Source: Clostridia bacterium (lineage in GTDB: Bacteria; Bacillota; Clostridia; Oscillospirales; CAG-272). Taken from it: a stretch of DNA of 64,000 nucleotides. The translations under genes were made by a program, and so were the position numbers. Shown one piece after another: positions 19,223-30,889 of the stretch. Numbering within the stretch: position 1 is the stretch's first letter; the number at the start of each line of letters is the position of its first letter. The stretch lies in the NCBI GenBank assembly GCA_900768535.1, contig CAAGDE010000001.1:1498-65497 (forward strand), given 5' to 3'. The notes under the pieces are model-generated. The model was not told where the DNA came from. It was given only the letters and a program-made list of their open reading frames with translations, and searched no databases.

Positions 19223-19629
19223 ATGACGCTTTATGTGGGCGGCAAGAGCATCGGCTCTCTTGATATTTCTTCCTTGAATTTCACTTCGCTGTACGGCTTC
19301 CGCTTCCTGAATCGCCTGACCGGGGATTGCTCCTTCAAGGATCTGAAGGTACGGACGGACCGTTTCTGTATCGGCTGGAGAACGGTCTTATCCGGATGAT
19401 CTGGTCAAGCTTTGCCAGCGGCCGTTATCAGGTGTTGGAGGCGGAAGCGGAACATCTGCACGGAAGCTGGAGACACCTGCCGCCGCGGTTTGCTTTTGAC
19501 GGCGGGCACGCAATGATTTTTACGGATTTCGGCGGAAAGCGATATCTTTCCCTGCATCGCCCGAACACCCCGCCCGATGAACGGGCAGTCTTTATTCCGT
19601 TTGATTCCGATCAAGCCGGAGAAATATGA
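19223..19629 (+). pseudogene. Gene remnant: short LamG-like end fragment, then (other frame) the last about 95 aa of a GH43-type glycosidase
   Basis: 19327..19629 encodes GPFLYRLENGLIRMIWSS...DGGHAMIFTDFGGKRYLSLHRPN, a GH43 C-terminal blade pattern, with no N-terminal catalytic part. Frame changes near 19330. Confidence 0.5.
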
Positions 19630-19773: not shown

Positions 19774-19802
19774 TTGACAGAATCAACGGAATGTGATATA
19801 AT
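19774..19802 (+). promoter_or_regulatory. Consensus sigma-A promoter with extended -10 for the S8/cohesin operon
   Basis: TTGACA at 19774..19779, 17-nt spacer ending TGA, TATAAT at 19797..19802. Confidence 0.7.
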
Positions 19803-19839
19803 AGCGGTAGAGTCAACAAACGATAGGAGGAAAACGGAA

Positions 19840-22800
19840 ATGTTGAAGCAAACAAAGTGGTTGGCGGTACTGCTGGCGGCAGTGCTTATGCTCGGCTCCT
19901 GTGCGCAGGTCGGCGGGGCTGTGCTTGCGGCGCGCGTGGGGATGCCTGCGGGTGCCGGAGAGGTCGCCGCACAGCCGGAGACGGCGCCCGGTCTGTCCGC
20001 GTCTGCGGCGGATGAGCCTGCCGGAGAATACCGCGAGGGGACGGTTCTGGTCAAGTATGACGGTGAGATGACCGATCATATTCTCGACCAGCTGGGGCTT
20101 GTCTCGGCGGAGCGGCTCTGGAGCGGCTCGGAGTGGTACACCGTGACGGTCGGCGAGACGCGCAACACGCGGGAGACGGTCGCCTATCTGCGCGAGCTGG
20201 GGTGCTTTGCGCAGGTGGACTATGACTACATCATGAAGGGGGACGGCGAGGTGACGTCGGTGGACGTGTCGTCGAACCCGGAGTATACAAAGCAGGAGGG
20301 CTATCTTGACACGCTGGGGGTCGGCAAGGCGTGGAACTACATCCGCAGTCTCGGCAAGCATCCGGGCGGCAGTGCGGACGTTGTGGTGGCGGTGATTGAC
20401 ACCGGTGTGGACTACAGCCATCCGGATCTGCAGAACAATATCTGGATCAACAGCGGGGAAATTCCCGGCAACGGCATTGACGATGACGGCAACGGCTATG
20501 TGGACGATGTTTACGGCTGGAACTTTGTCGGCGGAAACAACGACCCGATGGACGACAACGGGCACGGCACGCACGTTGCGGGCATTGTTGCCATGGAGAA
20601 CAACGCGGTCGGCGGCGTCGGCGTTGCCTACAACAGCAAGGTGATGGTGCTGAAGGCGGGCAATTCCTCCGGATACTTCAACAACTCGGATATTGCCGAG
20701 GCAATTCAGTATGCCTACATGAACGGCGCATCGGTCATCAATATGTCCTTCGGCGGCTCGATGATTTCCCTGGCAGTGGAGGAAGCCCTGCAAATGGCGT
20801 ACACCTCCTGCGTGCTGGTTGCCGCGGCGGGGAATGCTGGACTGTGCAATCAGCCTGGTTGTCCTGTTCATTTTAATGCACGCGCTTCCTATCCGGCGGC
20901 ATTGCCTTATGTCATTGGTGTTATGAGCTGCGATGCGACCGGAACGGTAGAATCTGGATTTTCGAACTTCGATCACTATCCCTTCAACTCGGTAGAATAC
21001 GAAATCTACGCACCGGGGGAAGGAATCTGCTCGACTTGGCCTGGGAACCGCTACGCAACCCTGAACGGTACCTCCATGGCGGCGCCGACGGTCTCTGGCA
21101 TTGTTGCACTGCTGCGCACGGTGTATGCAGACCGGGAGAAATACTCCACCAAATTCATCCAGTCGCAACTGATCAACACCACGGAGTTCTGTGCGGACGC
21201 GCTCCATGCATTGACCGACAGCCCGAAGCCCTCGGTGAAGCTTTACGATTGCCGGATTGACGACAGCACCGACATCAGCCCGAAGAACAACGGCAACGGC
21301 GTGATGGACGCGGGCGAAACGGTGAGGCTTTATGTTTCCCTCCAAAACCGCGGCGGCGTGGCAAGCAATGTGCAGGTGACGCTGGATACCCTGCGGATGA
21401 GCGGGCAGAGTGACCCTTATTTCACCCTTCTGAAGGATCGGGTAGTTCTCTCGGACATCGGCACCTACTCGGTGCGGGAGGCGGAAGGCGAGCAGTATTT
21501 TGAAATTGAAATTCACGCCGACTGCCCGAATGATTATCTTACCGATTTCAACCTTCACTTTACCTATTCCAACGGCATGATTGCAACCGATGAAACGGTC
21601 TTCAGCGGGGAAGGTACGGCACGTTTCAATGTTTCCAGCGGATATCATCTGCCGGCTGTTATCAACGAAGATACTGTTTTTGAAGCAACCCAGCGGTATA
21701 TTGTGGGAGAGGATGTCGTTATCCCGGAAGGTGTAACGGTTACGTTCAAGGAAGGGTGCGAAATTCAGTTTTACGACGACCGTGAATATTACAATTCGCC
21801 GCAATTTATTGTGTACGGCACCCTGAACCTGTTGGGTACAAAAGAGAAGATGGTGACTGTGAAACCATCAGAAAAGTATGCAGCTTTTGGTTGTCCGATG
21901 ATGGCGAAAAGTGGAGGGATTATCAGGATTGATTATGCTGAGATTGTAAATTATCTGTTTTCCTCTAGCGTGTGTGATTTTTACAAGACAAATATTGATA
22001 TCTCAAATTCAATATTAAGACGTGTGGCTGATGAAGAGGACTATTTTCCCCATAATCGTCTCTTTTCAAAAGGGGCGATAGTGTATGGTTATACTTACAA
22101 TTCTTCTTGGTCATTCACCGCCAATTCCATTACATCTTCTAAAATCGAGTGTGCTGATTACGGGGTTGAATTTCACATAAATGAAGCTTGTAACAACTAT
22201 TTCTTAGTAGCGTCTGATTTATGTGGGTTAAAAATATCAAGAAAATTTGCTGGGAATATTGTGCGGAGTTTTAATAAGACAGACGACTCGAAGTGTTCTT
22301 CTTCAATAGGTGGAACTGTAATTGATAATTATTTCGTCTCATATGATGACAGCGATCCAAATACCCTTTTACAACTTAATATTTCCAACGCTACCACCTT
22401 TGAAAACAACACATTCTCTGCCGGCTATCAAAAATATGCATCCCAAGTTATCGAAAACTATATCGGCTCCGACGGCAAGCCGAAGTACGACCTGACCGGC
22501 TCCTGCAGTGACATTTCCGCACTCTATCCGCACATTACGGACGTTGCCATTTTCAACAAGGGCAAGGAGCAGGTGACCACCATTGGTAAGGAACCGATTA
22601 CCGTGCGCGTGACCTTCAACCGCGCAATGGATACCACCAAAACCGTGTATGCCACCTTTGGCACGCGCGACCCCTACGGCGACTACCGCATTGACGGCAA
22701 GTTCGTCAGCGACACCGTGTGGGAAGGAACTTATACTCTCAAAGCCTACATTGAAAACGGCTTGCAGAAGCTGATTGTCCACGGCGCCTGCGCGGCGGAG

Positions 22801-23664
22801 GACGCAACAAAGGAGGTTCACGGCGAATATCAGCCCTACGAATTCAACATTGACACCACCACCGCAATGGCGATGAACCTGACTGCTCTGCCGGATGAAA
22901 CCGGTATCCGTCTGACGTGGAATCAGGACGACTACGCAACGCTGATGGGCTACAACCTCTACCGTTGCGACACGAAGAACGGCAACTATGTGCGCATCAA
23001 TCCCTCGGTTCTGCTGGCAAGCGAGGAGAGCTTCCTTGACACCAACGCCGAGCCGGGCAAGACCTACTGGTACACCTTTACCGTGGTGCTCTCCGACTTC
23101 AGCGAAACCGCGCCCGCCGGCAGAGTGTCGGCAACCGCGTTGGATACTCTGGCGCCCTCGCTTTACCACACGCCGGTCAATCAGGGGTACCTGGGCAACA
23201 ACCTGGTCATTTCCTGCACGGCAAGCGACAATGTTTCCGTTTCTGCGGTGACGCTGTTCTTCCGCGCCAAGGGAACGACCGAATGGACGGCGCGCACCAT
23301 GTCCCGCGTCAACGACAAATACAGCGCCACGGTGTTCGGCAGTGAGCTGACCGCCGACGGGCTGGAATACTACATCCTCGCCAGCGACGGCAGAAACAAC
23401 GTTGCAAAGGGGAGCGAGGAAGCCCCGTATCAGGTGGTCGTCAAGGATGCATCCCTCATCTCCCGCCTGGGTGATGTGGACGGGGACGGCGTCATTTCCG
23501 CCAAGGACGCGCTGATGATTCTGCAGCACATCGGCGGCGAGGTTCTGCTGACGGACGACCAGTTCCGCCGCGCCGACCTCAACAGCGACGGGGAACTCTC
23601 CGCCGTGGAAGCGCTCCGCATCCTGCAATTCATCAACGGTAAGGTCACAAGCCTTGCCATGTGA
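19840..23664 (+). CDS. Secreted subtilisin-family (S8) serine peptidase with propeptide, beta-helix-like insert, FN3-like module and C-terminal dockerin
   Basis: Signal peptide with possible lipobox LGSC. Catalytic triad motifs VAVIDTGVDYSHPDL, HGTHVAGIV and GTSMAAPTVSG. The dockerin is at the C-terminus. RBS TAGGAGG. Confidence 0.9.
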   Translation: MLKQTKWLAVLLAAVLMLGSCAQVGGAVLAARVGMPAGAGEVAAQPETAPGLSASAADEPAGEYREGTVLVKYDGEMTDHILDQLGLVSAERLWSGSEWYTVTVGETRNTRETVAYLRELGCFAQVDYDYIMKGDGEVTSVDVSSNPEYTKQEGYLDTLGVGKAWNYIRSLGKHPGGSADVVVAVIDTGVDYSHPDLQNNIWINSGEIPGNGIDDDGNGYVDDVYGWNFVGGNNDPMDDNGHGTHVAGIVAMENNAVGGVGVAYNSKVMVLKAGNSSGYFNNSDIAEAIQYAYMNGASVINMSFGGSMISLAVEEALQMAYTSCVLVAAAGNAGLCNQPGCPVHFNARASYPAALPYVIGVMSCDATGTVESGFSNFDHYPFNSVEYEIYAPGEGICSTWPGNRYATLNGTSMAAPTVSGIVALLRTVYADREKYSTKFIQSQLINTTEFCADALHALTDSPKPSVKLYDCRIDDSTDISPKNNGNGVMDAGETVRLYVSLQNRGGVASNVQVTLDTLRMSGQSDPYFTLLKDRVVLSDIGTYSVREAEGEQYFEIEIHADCPNDYLTDFNLHFTYSNGMIATDETVFSGEGTARFNVSSGYHLPAVINEDTVFEATQRYIVGEDVVIPEGVTVTFKEGCEIQFYDDREYYNSPQFIVYGTLNLLGTKEKMVTVKPSEKYAAFGCPMMAKSGGIIRIDYAEIVNYLFSSSVCDFYKTNIDISNSILRRVADEEDYFPHNRLFSKGAIVYGYTYNSSWSFTANSITSSKIECADYGVEFHINEACNNYFLVASDLCGLKISRKFAGNIVRSFNKTDDSKCSSSIGGTVIDNYFVSYDDSDPNTLLQLNISNATTFENNTFSAGYQKYASQVIENYIGSDGKPKYDLTGSCSDISALYPHITDVAIFNKGKEQVTTIGKEPITVRVTFNRAMDTTKTVYATFGTRDPYGDYRIDGKFVSDTVWEGTYTLKAYIENGLQKLIVHGACAAEDATKEVHGEYQPYEFNIDTTTAMAMNLTALPDETGIRLTWNQDDYATLMGYNLYRCDTKNGNYVRINPSVLLASEESFLDTNAEPGKTYWYTFTVVLSDFSETAPAGRVSATALDTLAPSLYHTPVNQGYLGNNLVISCTASDNVSVSAVTLFFRAKGTTEWTARTMSRVNDKYSATVFGSELTADGLEYYILASDGRNNVAKGSEEAPYQVVVKDASLISRLGDVDGDGVISAKDALMILQHIGGEVLLTDDQFRRADLNSDGELSAVEALRILQFINGKVTSLAM
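23470..23655 (+). other. Dockerin module (two EF-hand-like Ca-binding repeats)
   Basis: GDVDGDGVISAKDALMILQHI ... ADLNSDGELSAVEALRILQFINGK. Confidence 0.8.
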
Positions 23665-23675
23665 GGGACGGACGT

Positions 23676-26039
23676 ATGCAACGCAAACACAACCGGGTGT
23701 TGTCCCGCCTGACTGCCATCGTCTGCGCGCTCTGCCTGTGCCTGCTCTCCCTGCCGGCTTTTGCCGAGGGGGAGAGCGGACGGCGGATCACCGTATCCAC
23801 CGCGCAGACCGTCCGGCAGGGGAGCGGCAGCTACTGTACGGTCTCCGTCGATTCGCTGGGCACGCTCGCCTCGCTGGAGCTGACGGTCCATTTTGACCCC
23901 GCCACCGTGCAGGTGAGCGAGGGAAACCTCTATAACGAAGCCACTGCCTGCAGGCTCTATGACTCCCACGTCACGGACGGCGAAATCCGCCTGACCTACC
24001 TGTTTGACGGAAACGGGGCAGAAGGCGCGCAGAATCTCTTTTCCTTCTTCTATTCCGTCCCGGCAGACGCCCCGGTGGGCATGACCGGCTTTGACGTGAC
24101 GGTCGGCGAGGCGCTGGACGGCTCCCTGAATGCCCTGCCGGTCTCCGGCTCGCGCTGCAGCTTTGCGGTGGAAGCCTATGTGGCGCCGGACGTGACTTAT
24201 CTGTACGATTACGGCGCGGTCACCACGTCCGTCCGGCAGGAATTCACCCTGCGCTACGAGCTGGCGGACGCGAATGTGGTGTCCGGCTCCGCAGTGTTGG
24301 GGTATGACCCGGAATTGTTCGAGCCGGTGACGGTGACGTGCGGCGGTCTGCTGGAAGGCAAGCTGACCGACATCAACCAATCGCTTGCAGGGTCGGTCTA
24401 CCTCTCCTTTGCCGGCACCGCCTGCAACGGGAGCAATGATCTATTGTCCGTCACCTTCCGCACGCGCCGCAACCGCGCGGAGACGGCAGACCTGACGATG
24501 ACGGTCAAAGAGCTGTTCCGGCTGAACGGAGCCGCCGTGACCTGCCCGCCGCTGACCACGCGCGTGACCGTGGCGCATGACCCGGATTACGCTGAGGACG
24601 CGCCCGCCATGCAGCTTCACGCCGCCTATTCCGAGGCTGACCGACAGCTGACCGCGCGGATTGCGCTGGATGCGGAGTCCCACCTCGGCGCGGGCGATTT
24701 TGTCCTGCGGTTTGACCCGGAGCGGCTGGTTTTCCTGCGCGCCGGGCAGAAGCTGAAAGCGGATTTCCTCATTATCAACGATAAAAACGCCGCGGCGGGC
24801 GAGGTGAAATTCTCGGTGTTGTCCACGTCGGATCTTGTGGCGGCGGGGGACGTGCTGGAGGTGGTTTTCTCCGTCCCGCACGCCTGCGAAACGCTTCCCG
24901 CCATCCCGCTGACCCTTGAAGGAAAGAATCTTTCCGATTCGCTGACCAAACCGATTCTCCTGAACTTCATCGGTACCGAGGCAAAGCTCACCGGGCACAC
25001 GCCGGGCGCCCCGGTCACCGACCCGAACGGCGATTATCGCTACACGTCCTGCACCGAATGCGGCGCCGAGACCGCGCGGGAGTGGCTCTGCGAGGAGGCG
25101 CTGGCGTTTGCGGCGCACTTCTGCTCCTTCCACAACAATCTGACGCTCAATTACTATCTGGACGCATCGGTGGCTGCGCAGTACGGCAATCTCCGCCTGG
25201 TGCTGGAGCAGGACGTCTGGAGTCGTGACGGCACCAAAACGGTTGCACACACCGAGCTGACCGGCGTCCCGGTCGAACGGAGCGGAGTGCAGTACCTGAA
25301 ATTCAGCTTTTCCGGCATCGCCGCTGCACAGCTGAGCAGTGACATCCGTGCAAGACTGTATGCCGAAAAGGACGGCGCGGAGTGCCACGGGCGGCTGGAC
25401 ACCTACAATCTGAAGACCTATGCCTACAATCGTTTGGAGGCAAGCGAGGACACGGCATTCCGCACGCTGATGGTGAATCTTCTCAACTATTGCACGGCGG
25501 CACAGGTATATTTCGGCATCCGCACCGATGCACCCGTCAACGCGGAGCTGACCGAGGAGCAACGCGCGCCGGCAAGCGGAACCCCGACCGTTTCGGGCAT
25601 TGCCGGGCTGACCGAACAGGACGGTGCCGCGGCGGAATTCGTCGGGCATTCGGTCCTGTTCAACAGCAACGTTGTGCTGAAATCCTACTTCCGGCTGGAT
25701 GGCGTGGAGGACAAAAGCAACGTCACTCTGCGCGTAAAGGTCGCGGACGCGGACGGAACGACCGTTTACACGCTGCCGTTTGATGCGTTCGGCTATGACC
25801 CGGAAACCGGAAGGTACAACGCCAAGCTGGACACGCTTGCGGCACCGCAGTTCCGGAGCAGACTGGAGCTGACGGTCATGAACGGCGAAACCGCAATCAG
25901 CGGAACCTATACGTACAGCATCGAAACCTATGTGGCAAACCGGCTGTCCGGCTCGACCGACGGAAATTTCCGCGCACTGCTGGTCGCCATGATGCAGTAT
26001 TCCGACGCCGCGCGTGCTTATCTTGGGAAAGGAAACTGA
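23676..26039 (+). CDS. Secreted protein with three cohesin-like modules and two C-terminal repeats of an unknown module (scaffoldin-like)
   Basis: Signal peptide ...LLSLPAFA. Start ATG 23676 lies 7 nt after GAGGGA, which overlaps the protease stop codon. Cohesin-like pattern in each module (ELTVHFDPATVQV, AVLGYDPELFEPV, FVLRFDPERLVFL). Confidence 0.7.
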   Translation: MQRKHNRVLSRLTAIVCALCLCLLSLPAFAEGESGRRITVSTAQTVRQGSGSYCTVSVDSLGTLASLELTVHFDPATVQVSEGNLYNEATACRLYDSHVTDGEIRLTYLFDGNGAEGAQNLFSFFYSVPADAPVGMTGFDVTVGEALDGSLNALPVSGSRCSFAVEAYVAPDVTYLYDYGAVTTSVRQEFTLRYELADANVVSGSAVLGYDPELFEPVTVTCGGLLEGKLTDINQSLAGSVYLSFAGTACNGSNDLLSVTFRTRRNRAETADLTMTVKELFRLNGAAVTCPPLTTRVTVAHDPDYAEDAPAMQLHAAYSEADRQLTARIALDAESHLGAGDFVLRFDPERLVFLRAGQKLKADFLIINDKNAAAGEVKFSVLSTSDLVAAGDVLEVVFSVPHACETLPAIPLTLEGKNLSDSLTKPILLNFIGTEAKLTGHTPGAPVTDPNGDYRYTSCTECGAETAREWLCEEALAFAAHFCSFHNNLTLNYYLDASVAAQYGNLRLVLEQDVWSRDGTKTVAHTELTGVPVERSGVQYLKFSFSGIAAAQLSSDIRARLYAEKDGAECHGRLDTYNLKTYAYNRLEASEDTAFRTLMVNLLNYCTAAQVYFGIRTDAPVNAELTEEQRAPASGTPTVSGIAGLTEQDGAAAEFVGHSVLFNSNVVLKSYFRLDGVEDKSNVTLRVKVADADGTTVYTLPFDAFGYDPETGRYNAKLDTLAAPQFRSRLELTVMNGETAISGTYTYSIETYVANRLSGSTDGNFRALLVAMMQYSDAARAYLGKGN
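23781..24986 (+). other. Three tandem cohesin-like modules (approximately 23781..24173, 24195..24572 and 24609..24986)
   Basis: Each module is about 125-130 aa with x-V-x-V....L-x-V-x-[FY]-D-P-x-x-[VL] followed by G-x-[IV]-x-[LF]-[ST]-[YF]. Assigned by pattern, not by search. Confidence 0.55.
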
Positions 26040-26040
26040 T

Positions 26041-26151
26041 ATGAAACAGATCTATCAAACACCCGCCGCACTGTTGCCGGCAGGGGAAGATCTCATCCGA
26101 ACCAGCGATCCGTATGAAGGAGAACTGGATCCGGCGAACCTGAACAAATGA
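26041..26151 (+). CDS. Mini-ORF, 36 aa (MKQIYQTPAALLPAGEDLIRTSDPYEGELDPANLNK); family copy 2
   Basis: ATG lies 1 nt after the cohesin-like gene's TGA. AAAGGA is 7 nt upstream. A terminator follows directly. Confidence 0.45.
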   Translation: MKQIYQTPAALLPAGEDLIRTSDPYEGELDPANLNK

Positions 26152-26166
26152 CAGGAAATACCCAAA

Positions 26167-26201
26167 GGAGCGGCAGACAGATTTCTGTCGCTCCCGTTTT
26201 T
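26167..26201 (+). terminator. Rho-independent terminator closing the S8/cohesin/mini-ORF operon
   Basis: GGAGCGGCAGA pairs with TCTGTCGCTCC (one mismatch), followed by CGTTTTTG. Confidence 0.65.
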
Positions 26202-26243
26202 GTGTTCGGTTGTTTGAATATTCCGCTACGGAAAAAGAACGGC

Positions 26244-26272
26244 TTGACAAATCCGGAAAAACATGATATAAT
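26244..26272 (+). promoter_or_regulatory. Consensus sigma-A promoter for the MFS gene
   Basis: TTGACA at 26244..26249, 17-nt spacer, TATAAT at 26267..26272. Confidence 0.65.
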
Positions 26273-27699: not shown

Positions 27700-28674
27700 T
27701 TACCGTGCGTAATCTGCAACGGCGAGGATGGGGTTGTGGTCGGAGGGGTTCTGAATTTCGGGTGATTGCTTGACAAAAAAGCGGGTTGCGGTGAACGCGC
27801 CTGGGGTGACGAGGATATAGTCAAACGAGAAGTCCGCGCCTGCCCAGCTGCCGGACCAGTCGGTTTGCTCCGCGAGGTCCCGGATGTCGGTCAGCAGTCC
27901 GCTTTCCAGCAGCTCCGTGATGCCGCCGAGCCGGTACTCCTCCGGCTTCGAGTCACGGATTCCGTTGAGGTCGCCCATCAGCACAACCGCCGAGCCCGCC
28001 GGAATCTCCTCGCGCATCAGCCGGATCAGATGTCCTGCCTGTGCGATCCGCGCCCGGTTGCGCTCCGGGAAGATTTCCTTATTATTGGAGTTATTCTCCA
28101 GGTGTGTTCCGATGACCGTCAGTGTCCTGCCCGTAAGTCGGTCACGCAGCTCCGCAAAGGTTGCAAACCGGTAGTGGTGGCTTTCGGGTACCTTGGAATA
28201 TTTGGTTGGCGTATCGGTCAGGCAGTAGGTGTAGGTACTGACCGATTCAAAACGCTCGCGGCGGTAGAGGATTGCATTTCCGGTTGCGTATTTTCCGCCA
28301 AAGACGGTGCTGACCCAGCCGTAGGTTTCTGCCAGCTCCGGATGTTCTTCCCAGAGCTGATCGGTGCTTTCGTTGAGGACGGTGAGATCCGCGTTCAGCT
28401 TGTTCAGCACGCGGAGTACACTCTGATCGTGTGCGGTATTGCCTTCCTCATAGCCGTGGATGTTCCACGAAAGCAGACGGATTGCGGTGCTCGGTGCGAT
28501 CGGTTCGTTTGTTTGCTGCATGGTGGTTTGGTTCTCCTTTTCGGTGGCGGTGTCGGTTCCGGTCTGCTCCTCCCCGGCGGGTGTGGAATTGCACGCGCCG
28601 AGGGTGAAACCGAGGAGCAGGAGCAGGAGCGGAAAGAGACACAATCCCCGCTTTTTCTTCTTTGTTTTCATCAT
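27700..28674 (-). CDS. Endonuclease/exonuclease/phosphatase (EEP) family lipoprotein
   Basis: Lipobox LGFTLGAC. LLSWNIHGY, LTVLNES, MGDLNG and C-terminal NPSDHNPILA are EEP signature blocks. Confidence 0.85.
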   Translation of the reverse strand: MMKTKKKKRGLCLFPLLLLLLGFTLGACNSTPAGEEQTGTDTATEKENQTTMQQTNEPIAPSTAIRLLSWNIHGYEEGNTAHDQSVLRVLNKLNADLTVLNESTDQLWEEHPELAETYGWVSTVFGGKYATGNAILYRRERFESVSTYTYCLTDTPTKYSKVPESHHYRFATFAELRDRLTGRTLTVIGTHLENNSNNKEIFPERNRARIAQAGHLIRLMREEIPAGSAVVLMGDLNGIRDSKPEEYRLGGITELLESGLLTDIRDLAEQTDWSGSWAGADFSFDYILVTPGAFTATRFFVKQSPEIQNPSDHNPILAVADYAR

Positions 28675-28684
28675 GGTTTTTCGG

Positions 28685-30889
28685 TCAGTCGGGAAGGATG
28701 GTAACGGCTCCGGTCAGCGCGTAATGATCGCTGGGGAGGATGTCGCGGAAGGTTTCCGTCACGATGTCCATCTGCGAGATATAGAAGGTTCCGGTGCCGG
28801 CAAAGATATAATCGAGGAAGACCTTCTTTCCTTCGTAGCCGTGGTGCGTGCCCTGATTGAATGCGGGCGCGGAATCGGCTTCATAGCGGATGTCGGATGC
28901 CACGGACGTCAGTGCGGTGTAGGCGGGGGAGTTCGCCTTGTCATTGAAGTCCCCGACGATGAAGAAGGGCAGGGTATGATCGAACATCGCATCGGAGGCA
29001 ATCAGCTCCGCGAGCTTTTCCGCCTGCTTCCGGCGCAGGGTGCTTCCCACGGATTCCAGCTCCGCAACCTGCCCCTTGTAGGAGAAGTGCGTGTCGCAGA
29101 ATGCAAAGCGGTTGCCGGTTTTTTTTTCGGAAAGCACCGCATAGACTGCTTTGCGGGGATAGAAGGACGCTCCCTGCCGGTTGGCTTCAACGGCTTCTTC
29201 AAACAGGGAATTCGGTGTGTCCGGGGTGTCGGACAGCCATTTCGTGCCCGATGCGACCAAATCAAACCGATCCTTGCGCCACAGAATGAACAGTCCCTCC
29301 TCTCCGTTCTCTCCCACAGGGGACCCGGTGAGTTCGTAATGCTTCATCAGTTCCCCGTTTGCGCGATACATGGCAAGAATCCGATCCGATACCTCCTGCA
29401 ATCCGATCACATCTGGCATCAGCGAGAGGAACATTTCCACGGCGGATGCGGTGCGCACCTCATCGGTCAGGGTGCCGAACTCGCCCGCCTCGTAGCTTGC
29501 GGCATTCAGGACATTGAACGACATGACATCCAGCGCGGTGATATCCCCGGCAATCTCCCTGCACGCGGCGAGCATTTCCGCATTGGAGCGGGTCTCACCG
29601 ATGCCGGCAACCACCTTTGCGGCGGTGCGGCGGCAGCTGGCTTTCTCCGGCTCAGCATAGTAGACAAACGGCGTGTCCTCAATGGTAAAGGTCACATATG
29701 CCCGTGCAATGAAGGTCTTGCCCTCCAGTGCTGCCGAATCGACAAACGCGTGGCTTTGGCGGAGAATGCCGTCCGCATCGGAGACGGTGCGGGGCGCGGC
29801 ACTGCGGAGAATGCCTGGCGTTTCCAGCGTCAGTTCGCCGGTGTAGGCGCTGCTCTCCTGCAGGATGACTCCCACCTCTGCTGCACTGGCTTCCGGCACA
29901 GCCTTGAGCGCCGTATAGAAGCGCAGACCCGCGCCGCCGCTCCAGCGTACCGCACTGCCTGTTACGGAGAGAGGACGGAGGATCTGCAGGGCTTCGTCGG
30001 CGGGCATGAGCGTTCCGGTTTTGGTGGTCACGCGGAGATTGGTAAACTGCACGTCCCAGCGCTTGTCGGCGGTGGACTGATAATAGAACATGACCGGTGC
30101 GTCCGCCCACTGCGCATACGAGACGGAAACAGGAATGTCATCCACAAAGCTCTCGATTTTGGCGGTATAGGTCTTTCCGTCCACCTCCCAGCTTCCCTTG
30201 GTACAGCTGACCGACACATAGACCGAGCAGTTCTTCTTCGGCTTGTGTCCGGTCGTCAGCGCGGCGCTCTCAAACGCGGTTTTCTCACCGCCGGCAACGG
30301 TCCAGGTGCTGTAGTCGGAGAGCTTTGTTCCGGTGAAGCCGGTAAAGGTGAAATTGTCGTAGCCGTTGAAATAGGAGACGCCGTCCGTCGTCTTTGACTG
30401 ATAGAACAGCGCCAGCCCGAAGGCACCATTGGGGGCGTACTGCCGCTCCAGGTAGGAAACGGTGAACTGATCCAGCCCGGCGAGCACCGATGCGGGAACC
30501 ACCGTTAGGAAGCCTTCTCCGGCGTTGGGATTCTTGTCATTGCTCATGCTGAAAACATTCTTTGAGGTCGTCTCGGAGGCATGATTGCCCATGATGTCCA
30601 GCTTTTTGCTCACAACCTCAAACTGTTTGGAGAAGTCGGTCGTGCCGCTTCCGACAACGGTTTGGTCATAGAGGTTGTTCAGCGGGGAAAGACCGTCCCG
30701 CTTTTCCGTGCTGTTCCCGGCGGTCAGATCGGCAAGCTTTTTGCCCGTATGGTCTTCATAGAATAGCTCCGTTTCCGCAGAGGCACTGATGAGCACCTGC
30801 TTTCCCTCTGCGAAAGTGGCGATCGGCAGGGAAAGGAGCATGGCAACCAGCGCAAGGACGGACAGGGCTGACAGAATTCTTTTTTTCAT
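28685..30889 (-). CDS. Secreted 734-aa protein: about 290-aa N-terminal module shared with 33747..35051, an Ig-like module, and a C-terminal EEP domain
   Basis: Signal peptide. N-terminal half aligns with the 434-aa protein (KKLADLTAGN, ETTSKN[VL]FSMSN, DQFTVSY[LI]ERQY, QWADAPVMFYY, WDVQFTN). EEP blocks are MSFNVLN, IGLQEV, VGDFND and PSDHYAL. Confidence 0.85.
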   Translation of the reverse strand: MKKRILSALSVLALVAMLLSLPIATFAEGKQVLISASAETELFYEDHTGKKLADLTAGNSTEKRDGLSPLNNLYDQTVVGSGTTDFSKQFEVVSKKLDIMGNHASETTSKNVFSMSNDKNPNAGEGFLTVVPASVLAGLDQFTVSYLERQYAPNGAFGLALFYQSKTTDGVSYFNGYDNFTFTGFTGTKLSDYSTWTVAGGEKTAFESAALTTGHKPKKNCSVYVSVSCTKGSWEVDGKTYTAKIESFVDDIPVSVSYAQWADAPVMFYYQSTADKRWDVQFTNLRVTTKTGTLMPADEALQILRPLSVTGSAVRWSGGAGLRFYTALKAVPEASAAEVGVILQESSAYTGELTLETPGILRSAAPRTVSDADGILRQSHAFVDSAALEGKTFIARAYVTFTIEDTPFVYYAEPEKASCRRTAAKVVAGIGETRSNAEMLAACREIAGDITALDVMSFNVLNAASYEAGEFGTLTDEVRTASAVEMFLSLMPDVIGLQEVSDRILAMYRANGELMKHYELTGSPVGENGEEGLFILWRKDRFDLVASGTKWLSDTPDTPNSLFEEAVEANRQGASFYPRKAVYAVLSEKKTGNRFAFCDTHFSYKGQVAELESVGSTLRRKQAEKLAELIASDAMFDHTLPFFIVGDFNDKANSPAYTALTSVASDIRYEADSAPAFNQGTHHGYEGKKVFLDYIFAGTGTFYISQMDIVTETFRDILPSDHYALTGAVTILPD

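Follow-up and report, generated by a model that had tools for sequence, protein, structure and literature searches.

The 64 kb stretch of DNA analysed here (the window), from an uncultured member of the gut Clostridia, carries two adjacent genes, the first encoding a large S8 subtilase precursor and the second a secreted protein with three cohesin-like modules. The features of the locus are as follows.

19774..19802, + strand: sigma-70-type promoter, TTGACA-17-TATAAT with extended TG, 12 of 12 consensus positions, predicted from the consensus match only
19840..23664, + strand: gene 1, S8 subtilase precursor of 1274 aa (ORF and Pfam), comprising signal, linker, prodomain, catalytic domain, beta-rich body and dockerin
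19840..19902, + strand: signal peptide with lipobox L-G-S-C (Cys21), read from sequence
20002..20202, + strand: putative N-terminal prodomain, aa 55–121, sub-threshold Pfam Fervidolysin_NPro-like
20377..21183, + strand: S8 catalytic domain, aa 180–448, Pfam PF00082 Peptidase_S8, E 1.3e-52
21218..23439, + strand: protease body, aa ~460–1200: beta-sandwich, central region that varies, Ig/FN3-like modules that are conserved
23467..23661, + strand: predicted dockerin with two calcium-loop/helix repeats, Pfam Dockerin_1, extending to the invariant C-terminal Met
23676..26039, + strand: gene 2, secreted scaffold of 787 aa (ORF and Pfam)
23676..23765, + strand: signal peptide of the signal-peptidase-I type (…LPAFA/EGE), read from sequence
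23781..24179, + strand: cohesin-like module 1, Pfam Cohesin 23.1 bits alone, beta-sandwich in the AF2 model
24180..24575, + strand: cohesin-like module 2, Pfam Cohesin 16.5 bits alone, AF2 model
24591..24995, + strand: cohesin-like module 3, Pfam Cohesin 18.3 bits alone, invariant S-x-LGAGDF motif
25041..25097, + strand: single Cys-rich element (YTSCTECGAETAREWLC), apparently resembling the CxxC repeats of membrane-anchored orthologues
25098..26036, + strand: C-terminal tandem module, two copies of a beta-sandwich plus helical hairpin, putative retention element
26041..26151, + strand: small 36-aa ORF, lying past the scaffold stop and before the terminator
26167..26204, + strand: intrinsic terminator, 11-bp stem with seven GC pairs, followed by a T-run

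The protease and scaffold genes form a promoter-to-terminator, two-gene operon. The promoter lies 38 nt 5' of the protease ATG at 19840, which is preceded by AGGAGG, and the enclosing ORF spans 19774..23664. The scaffold ATG (23676) is separated from the protease TGA (23662–23664) by 12 nt, and the GAGGGA upstream of this ATG overlaps the protease stop codon, exactly the spacing and Shine-Dalgarno overlap described in an earlier note on this DNA. That note ended the pair at 26151, which is not the scaffold stop (26039) but the stop of a 36-codon ORF that it did not mention. This small ORF is retained in locus L001 with an in-frame one-codon insertion, and was not found in distant loci. Downstream of the terminator, the next promoter is at 26244–26272.

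Gene 1 encodes an S8 subtilase, as the earlier note had stated, with a length of 1274 aa and intact D/H/S motifs: the Asp-His-Ser triad (D187, H242 and S412) lies in subtilisin order within the Peptidase_S8 domain, H242 and S412 are invariant across 14 orthologues, and orthologues are 57–62% identical across 1100 aa. Subtilases in the PDB match the protease down to E 1.5e-47, the nearest solved structures to the S8 domain being deseasin MCP-01 and Plasmodium SUB1. The possible LGSC lipobox pointed out previously is present (MLGS-C21, fitting [LVI][ASTVI][GAS]C) and a comparable one occurs in about 19 of 22 orthologues; by this criterion the protease is a predicted lipoprotein, presumably lipidated at the cysteine. 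Other parts of the earlier domain description need revision. The propeptide, taken to be I9-like, gives only a sub-threshold match to Fervidolysin_NPro-like (E 0.0019; 19 bits, cutoff 21) and not to I9, and a proposed beta-helix-like insert finds no support from Pfam. The FN3-like module does have a match, but a weak one (E about 0.01), the Pfam matches of the body being fn3_3 at 0.011 and Big_7 at 0.0068. The C-terminal 385 aa are specific to this protease family.

The protease ends in a type I-like dockerin, with the two repeats of about 22 residues, EF-hand-like calcium loop plus helix, that define such modules. In a profile search, Dockerin_1 (PF00404) matched aa 1210–1266 (nt 23467..23637) with an E-value of 8.1e-11 and 42.4 bits, above the Pfam cutoff of 22.9 and close to the limits of 23470..23655 proposed before, and in both loops (DVDGDGVISAKD and DLNSDGELSAVE) positions 1, 3, 5 and 12 are occupied by Asp, Asn or Glu. 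The dockerins of 12 orthologues average 81% column identity, with the terminal Met invariant, whereas scaffold orthologues are about 40% identical to each other. One contig carries two tandem protease paralogues with bodies that are 58% identical and dockerins that are almost identical. A six-frame scan of the 64 kb window for the calcium-loop motif returned the two repeats of this dockerin and nothing else, consistent with the earlier observation that none of the glycoside hydrolases in the window bears one.

The scaffold belongs to a family with A-x-A-type cleavage sites and no lipobox. Pfam Cohesin (PF00963) covers three stretches of it, with an E-value of 5.9e-14 and 52.9 bits for the whole protein against a cutoff of 24.1, whereas the modules scanned singly (23.1, 16.5 and 18.3 bits) each fall under that cutoff, and for this reason their identity as cohesins rests on the summed score and the predicted fold. 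The AF2 model of the region consists of three beta-sandwiches (pLDDT 89). Foldseek matches to a single module, not further specified, are the cohesins 6kgc_A, 4ums, 2jh2 and 2xdh (TM 0.72–0.79, rmsd 2.3–2.8 Å), as expected if the modules adopt the nine-stranded, jelly-roll beta-sandwich of cohesins. A sequence profile of the triple barely detects solved PDB cohesins (E 0.056–0.72). The earlier proposal of three tandem cohesins is thus upheld by the whole-protein score and the predicted fold, but not by the profile scores of single modules. These low scores, and the integrin legs and antibodies among the multi-domain Foldseek matches to the region, would suit a reading of the modules as Ig-like stalk domains of a generic kind, with no affinity for the dockerin; the two proteins would then be independent, and the dockerin's ligand would be a different partner or calcium alone. 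Such a scenario seems very improbable, as the top structural matches to single domains are genuine cohesins, the whole protein exceeds the Pfam threshold, and the 81% conservation of the dockerin, together with the invariant synteny described below, would be difficult to account for if no conserved partner lay beside it.

Within one scaffold the three modules align to each other with local scores of 40–58, which is noise level and like unrelated sequences, while each is 40–50% identical to its own orthologue; the cohesins thus look like an old, fixed triple. Because of this, and because they are mutually unlike, in contrast to the near-identical repeats of scaffoldins, the suggestion that a scaffold carries up to three copies of the protease is no longer supported. 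The dissimilarity also means that some of the modules may not bind any dockerin. A multivalent, CipA-like scaffoldin, with closely similar cohesins of the same specificity, does not fit these scores. No other ORF with cohesins or with the C-terminal module is present in the 64 kb window.

The earlier note held that the dockerin protease and its cohesin partner belong together, and comparative data bear this out. In every one of the informative genome loci (26/26), which represent different species-level genomes with unrelated flanking genes, the three-cohesin gene lies directly 3' of an orthologous gene for the dockerin protease, and the two-gene operon appears to have been kept intact across dozens of related species. 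When metagenomes were scanned with the dockerin alone as seed, it was found on this protease body in all 24 informative loci (24/24), and the same family accounts for the database protein fragments that carry it (4/4); within the samples searched, this dockerin type appears to be exclusive to this protease family. On some contigs the scaffold is preceded by a tandem array of two or three protease paralogues, and in one lineage the scaffold stands beside a 340-aa protease remnant without a signal peptide, so the scaffold can persist without an intact protease.

Those tandem paralogues could also be read as a sign that the three-cohesin protein is a general scaffoldin, with the protease one of several dockerin clients encoded across the genome and the adjacency reflecting co-regulation. 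The three mutually divergent cohesins could then represent three specificities, relatives with dockerin-ended scaffolds clearly do have wider cohesin-dockerin networks, and the dockerin survey of this organism spans the 64 kb window rather than the whole genome. This explanation is nevertheless unlikely, given that all sampled occurrences of the dockerin type are on this protease family, that the gene pairing is invariant, that there are always three cohesins here but a varying number in general scaffoldins, and that the window is devoid of any other dockerin.

The pair was seen in many uncultured Clostridia of the gut and rumen, from Oscillospiraceae, Acutalibacteraceae, Ca. Fimenecus, Christensenellaceae and other groups.

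How the scaffold is held at the cell is suggested by its C-terminus. As described previously, this part consists of two repeats of an unknown module (aa ~475–615 and ~650–787) for which no match was found in Pfam or NCBIfam. The AF2 model of the tandem module has a pLDDT of 93.5 and a pTM of 0.89, and has no match among PDB folds. Earlier inspection had revealed neither LPXTG nor SLH signals, and searches of Pfam and NCBIfam, in which Cohesin was the only match, likewise detected no LPXTG/sortase, SLH, CWB or LysM anchor on the scaffold; a C-terminal hydrophobic tail is absent, the protein ending in the unannotated tandem module. This module is acidic (median pI 4.9), occurs in 3533 clusters and ends within 5 aa of the C-terminus in 133 of 149 cases, and 95 of 119 proteins that have it possess a signal-like N-terminus. 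The proteins it closes are large and of surface type, with BspA LRR, Listeria-Bacteroides repeats, DUF285, CotH or M23 domains. With more than 3,500 clusters of large secreted proteins ending in it, the module is probably the element that retains the scaffold, as its position and context suggest. The C-termini of orthologous scaffolds interchange between a transmembrane helix, a lineage-specific (different) dockerin and the C-terminal module, and the presence of the module in place of the helix or second dockerin is the likely answer to the question of retention. Orthologous scaffolds also have spacers that can reach about 1400 aa in length, and in the membrane-anchored ones CxxC repeats make up long spacers.

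Such anchors and long spacers suit a display stalk and would be needless if the cohesin-like protein were instead dedicated to regulating or chaperoning the protease or to serving as its substrate, for example by keeping the enzyme inactive or folded after export (compare PrtM and PrtP), with the dockerin serving only as a recruitment handle. The strict 1:1 gene ratio, a spacing that suggests translational coupling, purifying selection on all three modules as distinct units, and a protease that brings a membrane anchor of its own (the lipobox) would fit that arrangement. Since the modules show a predicted cohesin fold and Pfam and NCBIfam detected no inhibitor or PPIase-like domain on the scaffold, we consider it distinctly improbable.

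The interpretation we favour, with a probability of roughly 0.7, is that the operon is a self-contained system for displaying a protease at the cell surface by means of a cognate cohesin-dockerin pair; binding, stoichiometry and anchoring are what we infer from the sequences. The S8 subtilase zymogen would be exported as a lipoprotein, with Cys21 as its membrane tether, and its C-terminal dockerin would bind at least one of the three divergent cohesins on the co-translated scaffold. The C-terminal tandem module would hold the scaffold at the cell surface, replacing the transmembrane helix or second dockerin of the orthologues. Once the prodomain is removed autocatalytically, the enzyme would lose its lipid anchor, and the cohesin-dockerin bond would be its only tether. 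The role is likely to be extracellular protein breakdown or the processing of surface proteins in a gut anaerobe, the substrate being presumptive. It could further be speculated that the ~310-aa tandem module is a surface-retention or sorting domain so far overlooked, common among those uncultured gut Clostridia in which classical anchors are missing, and that the operon is a dedicated 'protease display' machine in which the lipid-anchored zymogen passes, at prodomain cleavage, to a fixed three-cohesin stalk with distinct roles for its modules; as a whole this extended version is tentative, and doubtful rather than likely.

Like the cellulosomes (Clostridium thermocellum CipA, type I dockerins), the display system proposed here has secreted, tandem cohesin-fold modules, an enzyme that ends in a two-repeat calcium-loop dockerin, and a separate cell-attachment element on the scaffold. 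It differs in that the client is a protease and not a CAZyme, that there is no CBM, that the cohesins are a fixed triple of dissimilar modules instead of a variable number of near-identical repeats, that enzyme and scaffold form an invariant two-gene operon, and that the anchor is neither an SLH domain nor a sortase signal. The earlier label of mini-cellulosome-like therefore holds for the principle of assembly but not otherwise, no CAZyme or CBM being involved. A cellulosome proper was considered and rejected: within the window a dockerin occurs on the protease alone, neither a CBM nor a CAZyme domain was detected on the scaffold, and in the samples searched the dockerin type is confined to the protease family. 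The pair is better described as a putative dedicated, non-cellulosomal cohesin-dockerin system for protease display.

Lactococcal PrtP is a very large S8 surface protease that is covalently anchored via LPXTG and sortase, and its partner PrtM is a PPIase-type lipoprotein maturase. The present pair resembles PrtP/PrtM in the very large size of its S8 protease, whose beta-rich C-terminal body is long, in the proposed surface display by a Gram-positive organism, in a dedicated partner gene next to that of the protease and, probably, in a link to nitrogen nutrition, but here the tether would be a non-covalent dockerin-cohesin bond and the lipobox is on the protease itself. Also comparable is the S8 subtilase dDoc_0689, described in 2024 work (via PMC12484212) as tethered by dockerin to the cell surface rather than acting on biomass. 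As far as that description goes (PMC12484212), it shares with our protease the use of a dockerin for surface tethering but has a tandem double dockerin, belongs to a full cellulosome producer and docks on a general anchoring scaffoldin, whereas the protease studied here has just one dockerin, a scaffold of its own encoded next to it, and a lipoprotein signal. In Ruminococcus flavefaciens, a papain-like cysteine peptidase module with an X-dockerin binds ScaE (PMC3573020), which is likewise surface attachment of a peptidase by a cohesin-dockerin pair, but the catalytic class, the dockerin arrangement and the shared anchoring scaffoldin with its sortase signal are different. Cohesin-dockerin assembly outside cellulose degradation is also known from the amylosome of Ruminococcus bromii (PMC4611034), and non-cellulosic use is a further likeness to the cohesin-like modules of Clostridium perfringens (2jh2, 2w1n) and the cohesin of Archaeoglobus fulgidus (2xdh); such non-cellulosomal cohesins are among the best Foldseek matches to the scaffold modules. 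In these three systems the clients are amylases, glycosidases or toxins, and none is a conserved operon of a protease and a three-cohesin protein.

Cohesin-dockerin assembly has mostly been studied as an organiser of carbohydrate-active enzymes, and the pair described here would extend cellulosome-style assembly to a dedicated protease. As a strictly conserved pair, the protease and scaffold families would provide a clean, minimal model for the co-evolution of cognate cohesins and dockerins and, should they bind as proposed, would add an orthogonal binding pair to the tools of protein engineering. Being unannotated, confidently predicted and present on thousands of surface proteins, the C-terminal module merits a family definition of its own. 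For the abundant uncultured anaerobes of the gut, the pair is a candidate route for proteolysis at the cell surface.

The protease and its neighbour, a secreted three-cohesin scaffold, would work like a cohesin–dockerin display system. Their genes make up a single promoter-to-terminator unit, given the promoter at 19774-19802 and the terminator at 26167-26204.

Features of the operon and its immediate surroundings (window positions)
19774-19802 (+): promoter, a perfect TTGACA-17-TATAAT with an extended TG
19840-23664 (+): gene 1, protease of 1274 aa; ATG at 19840 with AGGAGG upstream, TGA at 23662-23664
23676-26039 (+): gene 2, scaffold of 787 aa; starts 12 nt past the gene 1 stop, with an upstream GAGGGA overlapping that stop codon
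26041-26151 (+): 36-codon ORF (MKQIYQTPAALLPAGEDLIRTSDPYEGELDPANLNK), 2 nt past the scaffold stop and before the terminator
26167-26204 (+): terminator, a GC-rich hairpin (11 bp) followed by a T-run
26244-26272: next consensus promoter, ahead of an MFS transporter gene

The end coordinate of the earlier note, 26151, is the stop of the 36-codon ORF, which persists with an in-frame one-codon insertion in the locus of a 98%-identical relative (L001) and was not seen in the distant loci compared. Genes flanking the pair in the window are unrelated to it (fucose isomerase, FGGY kinase, the MFS transporter and two EEP-family proteins). The latter two, of 324 and 734 aa, are adjoining secreted endonuclease/exonuclease/phosphatase-family proteins (27700..30889, minus strand), the first carrying a lipobox (LGAC); they also lie beside the cassette in L001, and are missing from the distant loci. 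A 100-aa ORF (19327..19629, plus strand) separates the sugar kinase gene from the promoter of the operon; it has no Pfam match and may be a gene fragment. A role as a RiPP or lantibiotic leader peptidase was considered for the protease and dropped, as the flanking genes vary at every locus and none is biosynthetic.

Pfam confirmed the gene pair described in the earlier note, a protease with a dockerin followed by a three-cohesin protein, and located the following domains in the protease.

Domains of the gene 1 product (Pfam)
Residues 55-121: Fervidolysin N-prodomain, E 0.0019, below threshold
Residues 180-448: Peptidase_S8, E 1.3e-52
Residues 1210-1266: Dockerin_1, E 8.1e-11, 42.4 bits against a cutoff of 22.9

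All three S8 catalytic residues (D187, H242 and S412) were found. About 740 residues separate the catalytic domain from the dockerin, and the Pfam scan of this region gave weak Ig/FN3-like matches and none to the proposed beta-helix. In a profile search against the PDB, matches to the protease body were confined to the catalytic domain. The N-terminus fits a lipobox pattern, MLKQTKWLAVLLAAVLMLGS-C21, as had been suspected, and about 19 of 22 protease orthologues carry one; the scaffold signals are instead of the A-x-A type, that of the window being of the signal-peptidase-I type (…PAFA/EGE). The protease is thus a predicted lipoprotein.

The cohesin assignment is less direct. Pfam recognized three Cohesin stretches when the whole scaffold was scanned (52.9 bits against a cutoff of 24.1), but single modules scanned separately each fell just under the cutoff (23.1, 16.5 and 18.3 bits). 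A search of the PDB with the scaffold sequence returned no matches, and a profile of the three N-terminal modules (the triple) gave marginal matches to solved cohesins (E 0.056–0.72). An AlphaFold2 model of the triple, built with 27 homologues, consists of three beta-sandwiches (mean pLDDT 89) whose relative orientation is undefined, as indicated by a pTM of 0.52. The top single-domain Foldseek matches were true cohesins (6kgc_A, 4ums, 2jh2 and 2xdh; TM 0.72–0.79, rmsd 2.3–2.8 Å), and the modules were accepted as highly divergent members of the cohesin fold. A six-frame scan of the 64 kb found dockerin calcium loops nowhere besides the protease dockerin, and HMMs of the triple and of the scaffold's C-terminal tandem module matched no further ORF in the window.

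The exact scaffold of the window is absent from the database, and a 98%-identical representative served for neighbourhood look-up. The triple is common to 26 proteins at ~40% identity, and an S8–dockerin gene lay immediately upstream in all four neighbourhoods examined, with unrelated flanks. When a single genome of each species was scanned with a 10-sequence alignment, 27 loci came back, all from gut or rumen MAGs (Oscillospiraceae, Acutalibacteraceae, Ca. Fimenecus, Ca. Avispirillum, Christensenellaceae and others); the returned representative genomes did not include the species of the window. An orthologous protease with dockerin directly precedes the three-cohesin gene on the same strand at 26 of 26 informative loci. 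In the converse test, a metagenome scan seeded with the dockerin alone, the dockerin sat on this protease body in 24 of 24 informative loci, and the gene after the protease was either the three-cohesin gene or a tandem protease paralogue (seven loci, four contigs). The claim of a dedicated pairing was largely right. Against the protein database the 70-aa dockerin, a short query to which the word index is ill suited, gave four candidates, all C-terminal fragments of the protease that include its preceding Ig-like domain. The C-terminal 385 aa of the protease (Ig/FN3-like modules and dockerin) had 116 matches, nearly all with a precomputed Dockerin_1 match.

On some metagenome contigs (L044/L053, L046/L051, L048/L052 and L047/L041), tandem paralogues number two or three, with bodies 46–58% identical; at L047/L041, the only contig where the downstream gene is readable, they precede one scaffold gene and their dockerins are nearly identical. 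Elsewhere (L058, 10001..18479, and L059) the upstream gene is a 340-aa Ig–dockerin remnant without an S8 domain or signal peptide. This lineage was found on seven contigs, and its remnant adjoins an intact protein of 2479 aa in which three cohesins are combined with BspA LRR repeats; since the scaffold is kept here beside a protease remnant only, it can outlive the protease. One cassette (L029, LJKL01000014.1), with the protease split into three ORFs, lies on a contig assigned to a 'Methanomassiliicoccales archaeon RumEn M2' assembly; mis-binning of a bacterial contig, or decay of this copy, is the probable explanation.

Conservation is highest in the dockerin, whose mean column identity is 81% and whose C-terminal Met is invariant; orthologous proteases are 57–62% identical, and the scaffold triple is ~40% identical between orthologues. 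On one contig, two tandem protease paralogues have bodies that are 58% identical and dockerins that differ at three positions. Such a pattern of sequence conservation would be expected of a dockerin constrained to fit an unchanging partner. Aligned among themselves, the cohesins of one scaffold score no better than noise (local scores 40–58), each shares 40–50% identity with the orthologue at its own position in other species, and their number is always three. Multivalent scaffoldins carry near-identical cohesins that vary in number, so a fixed, mutually dissimilar triple represents a different design, and the suggestion that each scaffold holds up to three proteases is therefore unsupported. 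Dockerin binding may fall to a single module, with another function for the remaining two; alternatively, each module may have a partner of its own, for instance among the protease paralogues in loci that carry them.

Subtilases autoprocess, and because the predicted lipid-bearing Cys of the protease lies N-terminal to its putative prodomain, this step would release the mature enzyme from its membrane attachment. If the protease is lipidated and its prodomain cleaved as in other subtilases, the dockerin would then be the sole tether of the freed enzyme. We hypothesize, on this basis, a hand-off from lipid to dockerin.

Dockerin-bearing peptidases are already known in cellulosome producers (PMC3573020 and PMC12484212). 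An S8 protease of C. thermocellum, bearing a double dockerin, shows a preference for the anchoring scaffoldin ScaD (PMC12484212), and a cysteine peptidase of R. flavefaciens binds ScaE (PMC3573020). Non-cellulosomal cohesin–dockerin systems are exemplified by the R. bromii amylosome (PMC4611034) and, among the structural matches, by modules of C. perfringens and A. fulgidus. Literature searches returned such proteases from cellulosome producers and no description of this operon, that is, of a dedicated and invariant protease–scaffold operon with a fixed dissimilar cohesin triple, a lipoprotein signal on the enzyme and interchangeable scaffold anchors. The 'mini-cellulosome-like' label holds for the cohesin–dockerin principle but not for the cellulosome, as the system has neither a CAZyme client nor a CBM; nor does the window's scaffold qualify as a multivalent scaffoldin.

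Orthologous scaffolds end in three ways: in a transmembrane helix with a basic tail, preceded by long Cys-rich CxxC repeats; in Listeria-Bacteroides or CxxC repeats followed by a lineage-variable dockerin unlike that of the protease; or, as in the window, in the tandem module (25098..26036). Arrays of CxxC…CxxC with up to ~77 Cys lie between the cohesins and the transmembrane helix in L003, L010, L015, L019, L021, L022 and L025; the window scaffold has a single degenerate CxxC element (aa 456-474, 25041..25097) ahead of its tandem module. Because the tandem module stands where other scaffolds have a transmembrane helix or dockerin, we infer that it is the retention element of the scaffold; a substrate-targeting role is an alternative.

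Neither repeat of the module has a Pfam or NCBIfam match. Its AlphaFold2 model is rigid and alternates beta-sandwich and helical hairpin, with two of each in that order (pLDDT 93.5, pTM 0.89), and since Foldseek against the PDB gave only generic tandem Ig-like matches (TM ≤ 0.23), no function can be transferred to it. A basic, wall-binding character was rejected, the module being acidic (median pI 4.9). An exhaustive HMMER search recovered 3,533 representative clusters (50% identity), 157 of them at E ≤ 1e-30, and in 133 of the best 149 matches the module ends within five residues of the C-terminus. The carriers are large (median 1071 aa, maximum 4368 aa), 95 of 119 have a signal-like N-terminus, and those sampled have the domains typical of surface proteins, namely BspA LRR, Listeria-Bacteroides repeats, DUF285, CotH, or M23 with a ricin lectin. 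The module is thus a large unannotated family, which almost always forms the very C-terminal end of large, secreted proteins of the cell surface, and as a by-product of this analysis it is possibly of more interest than the operon.
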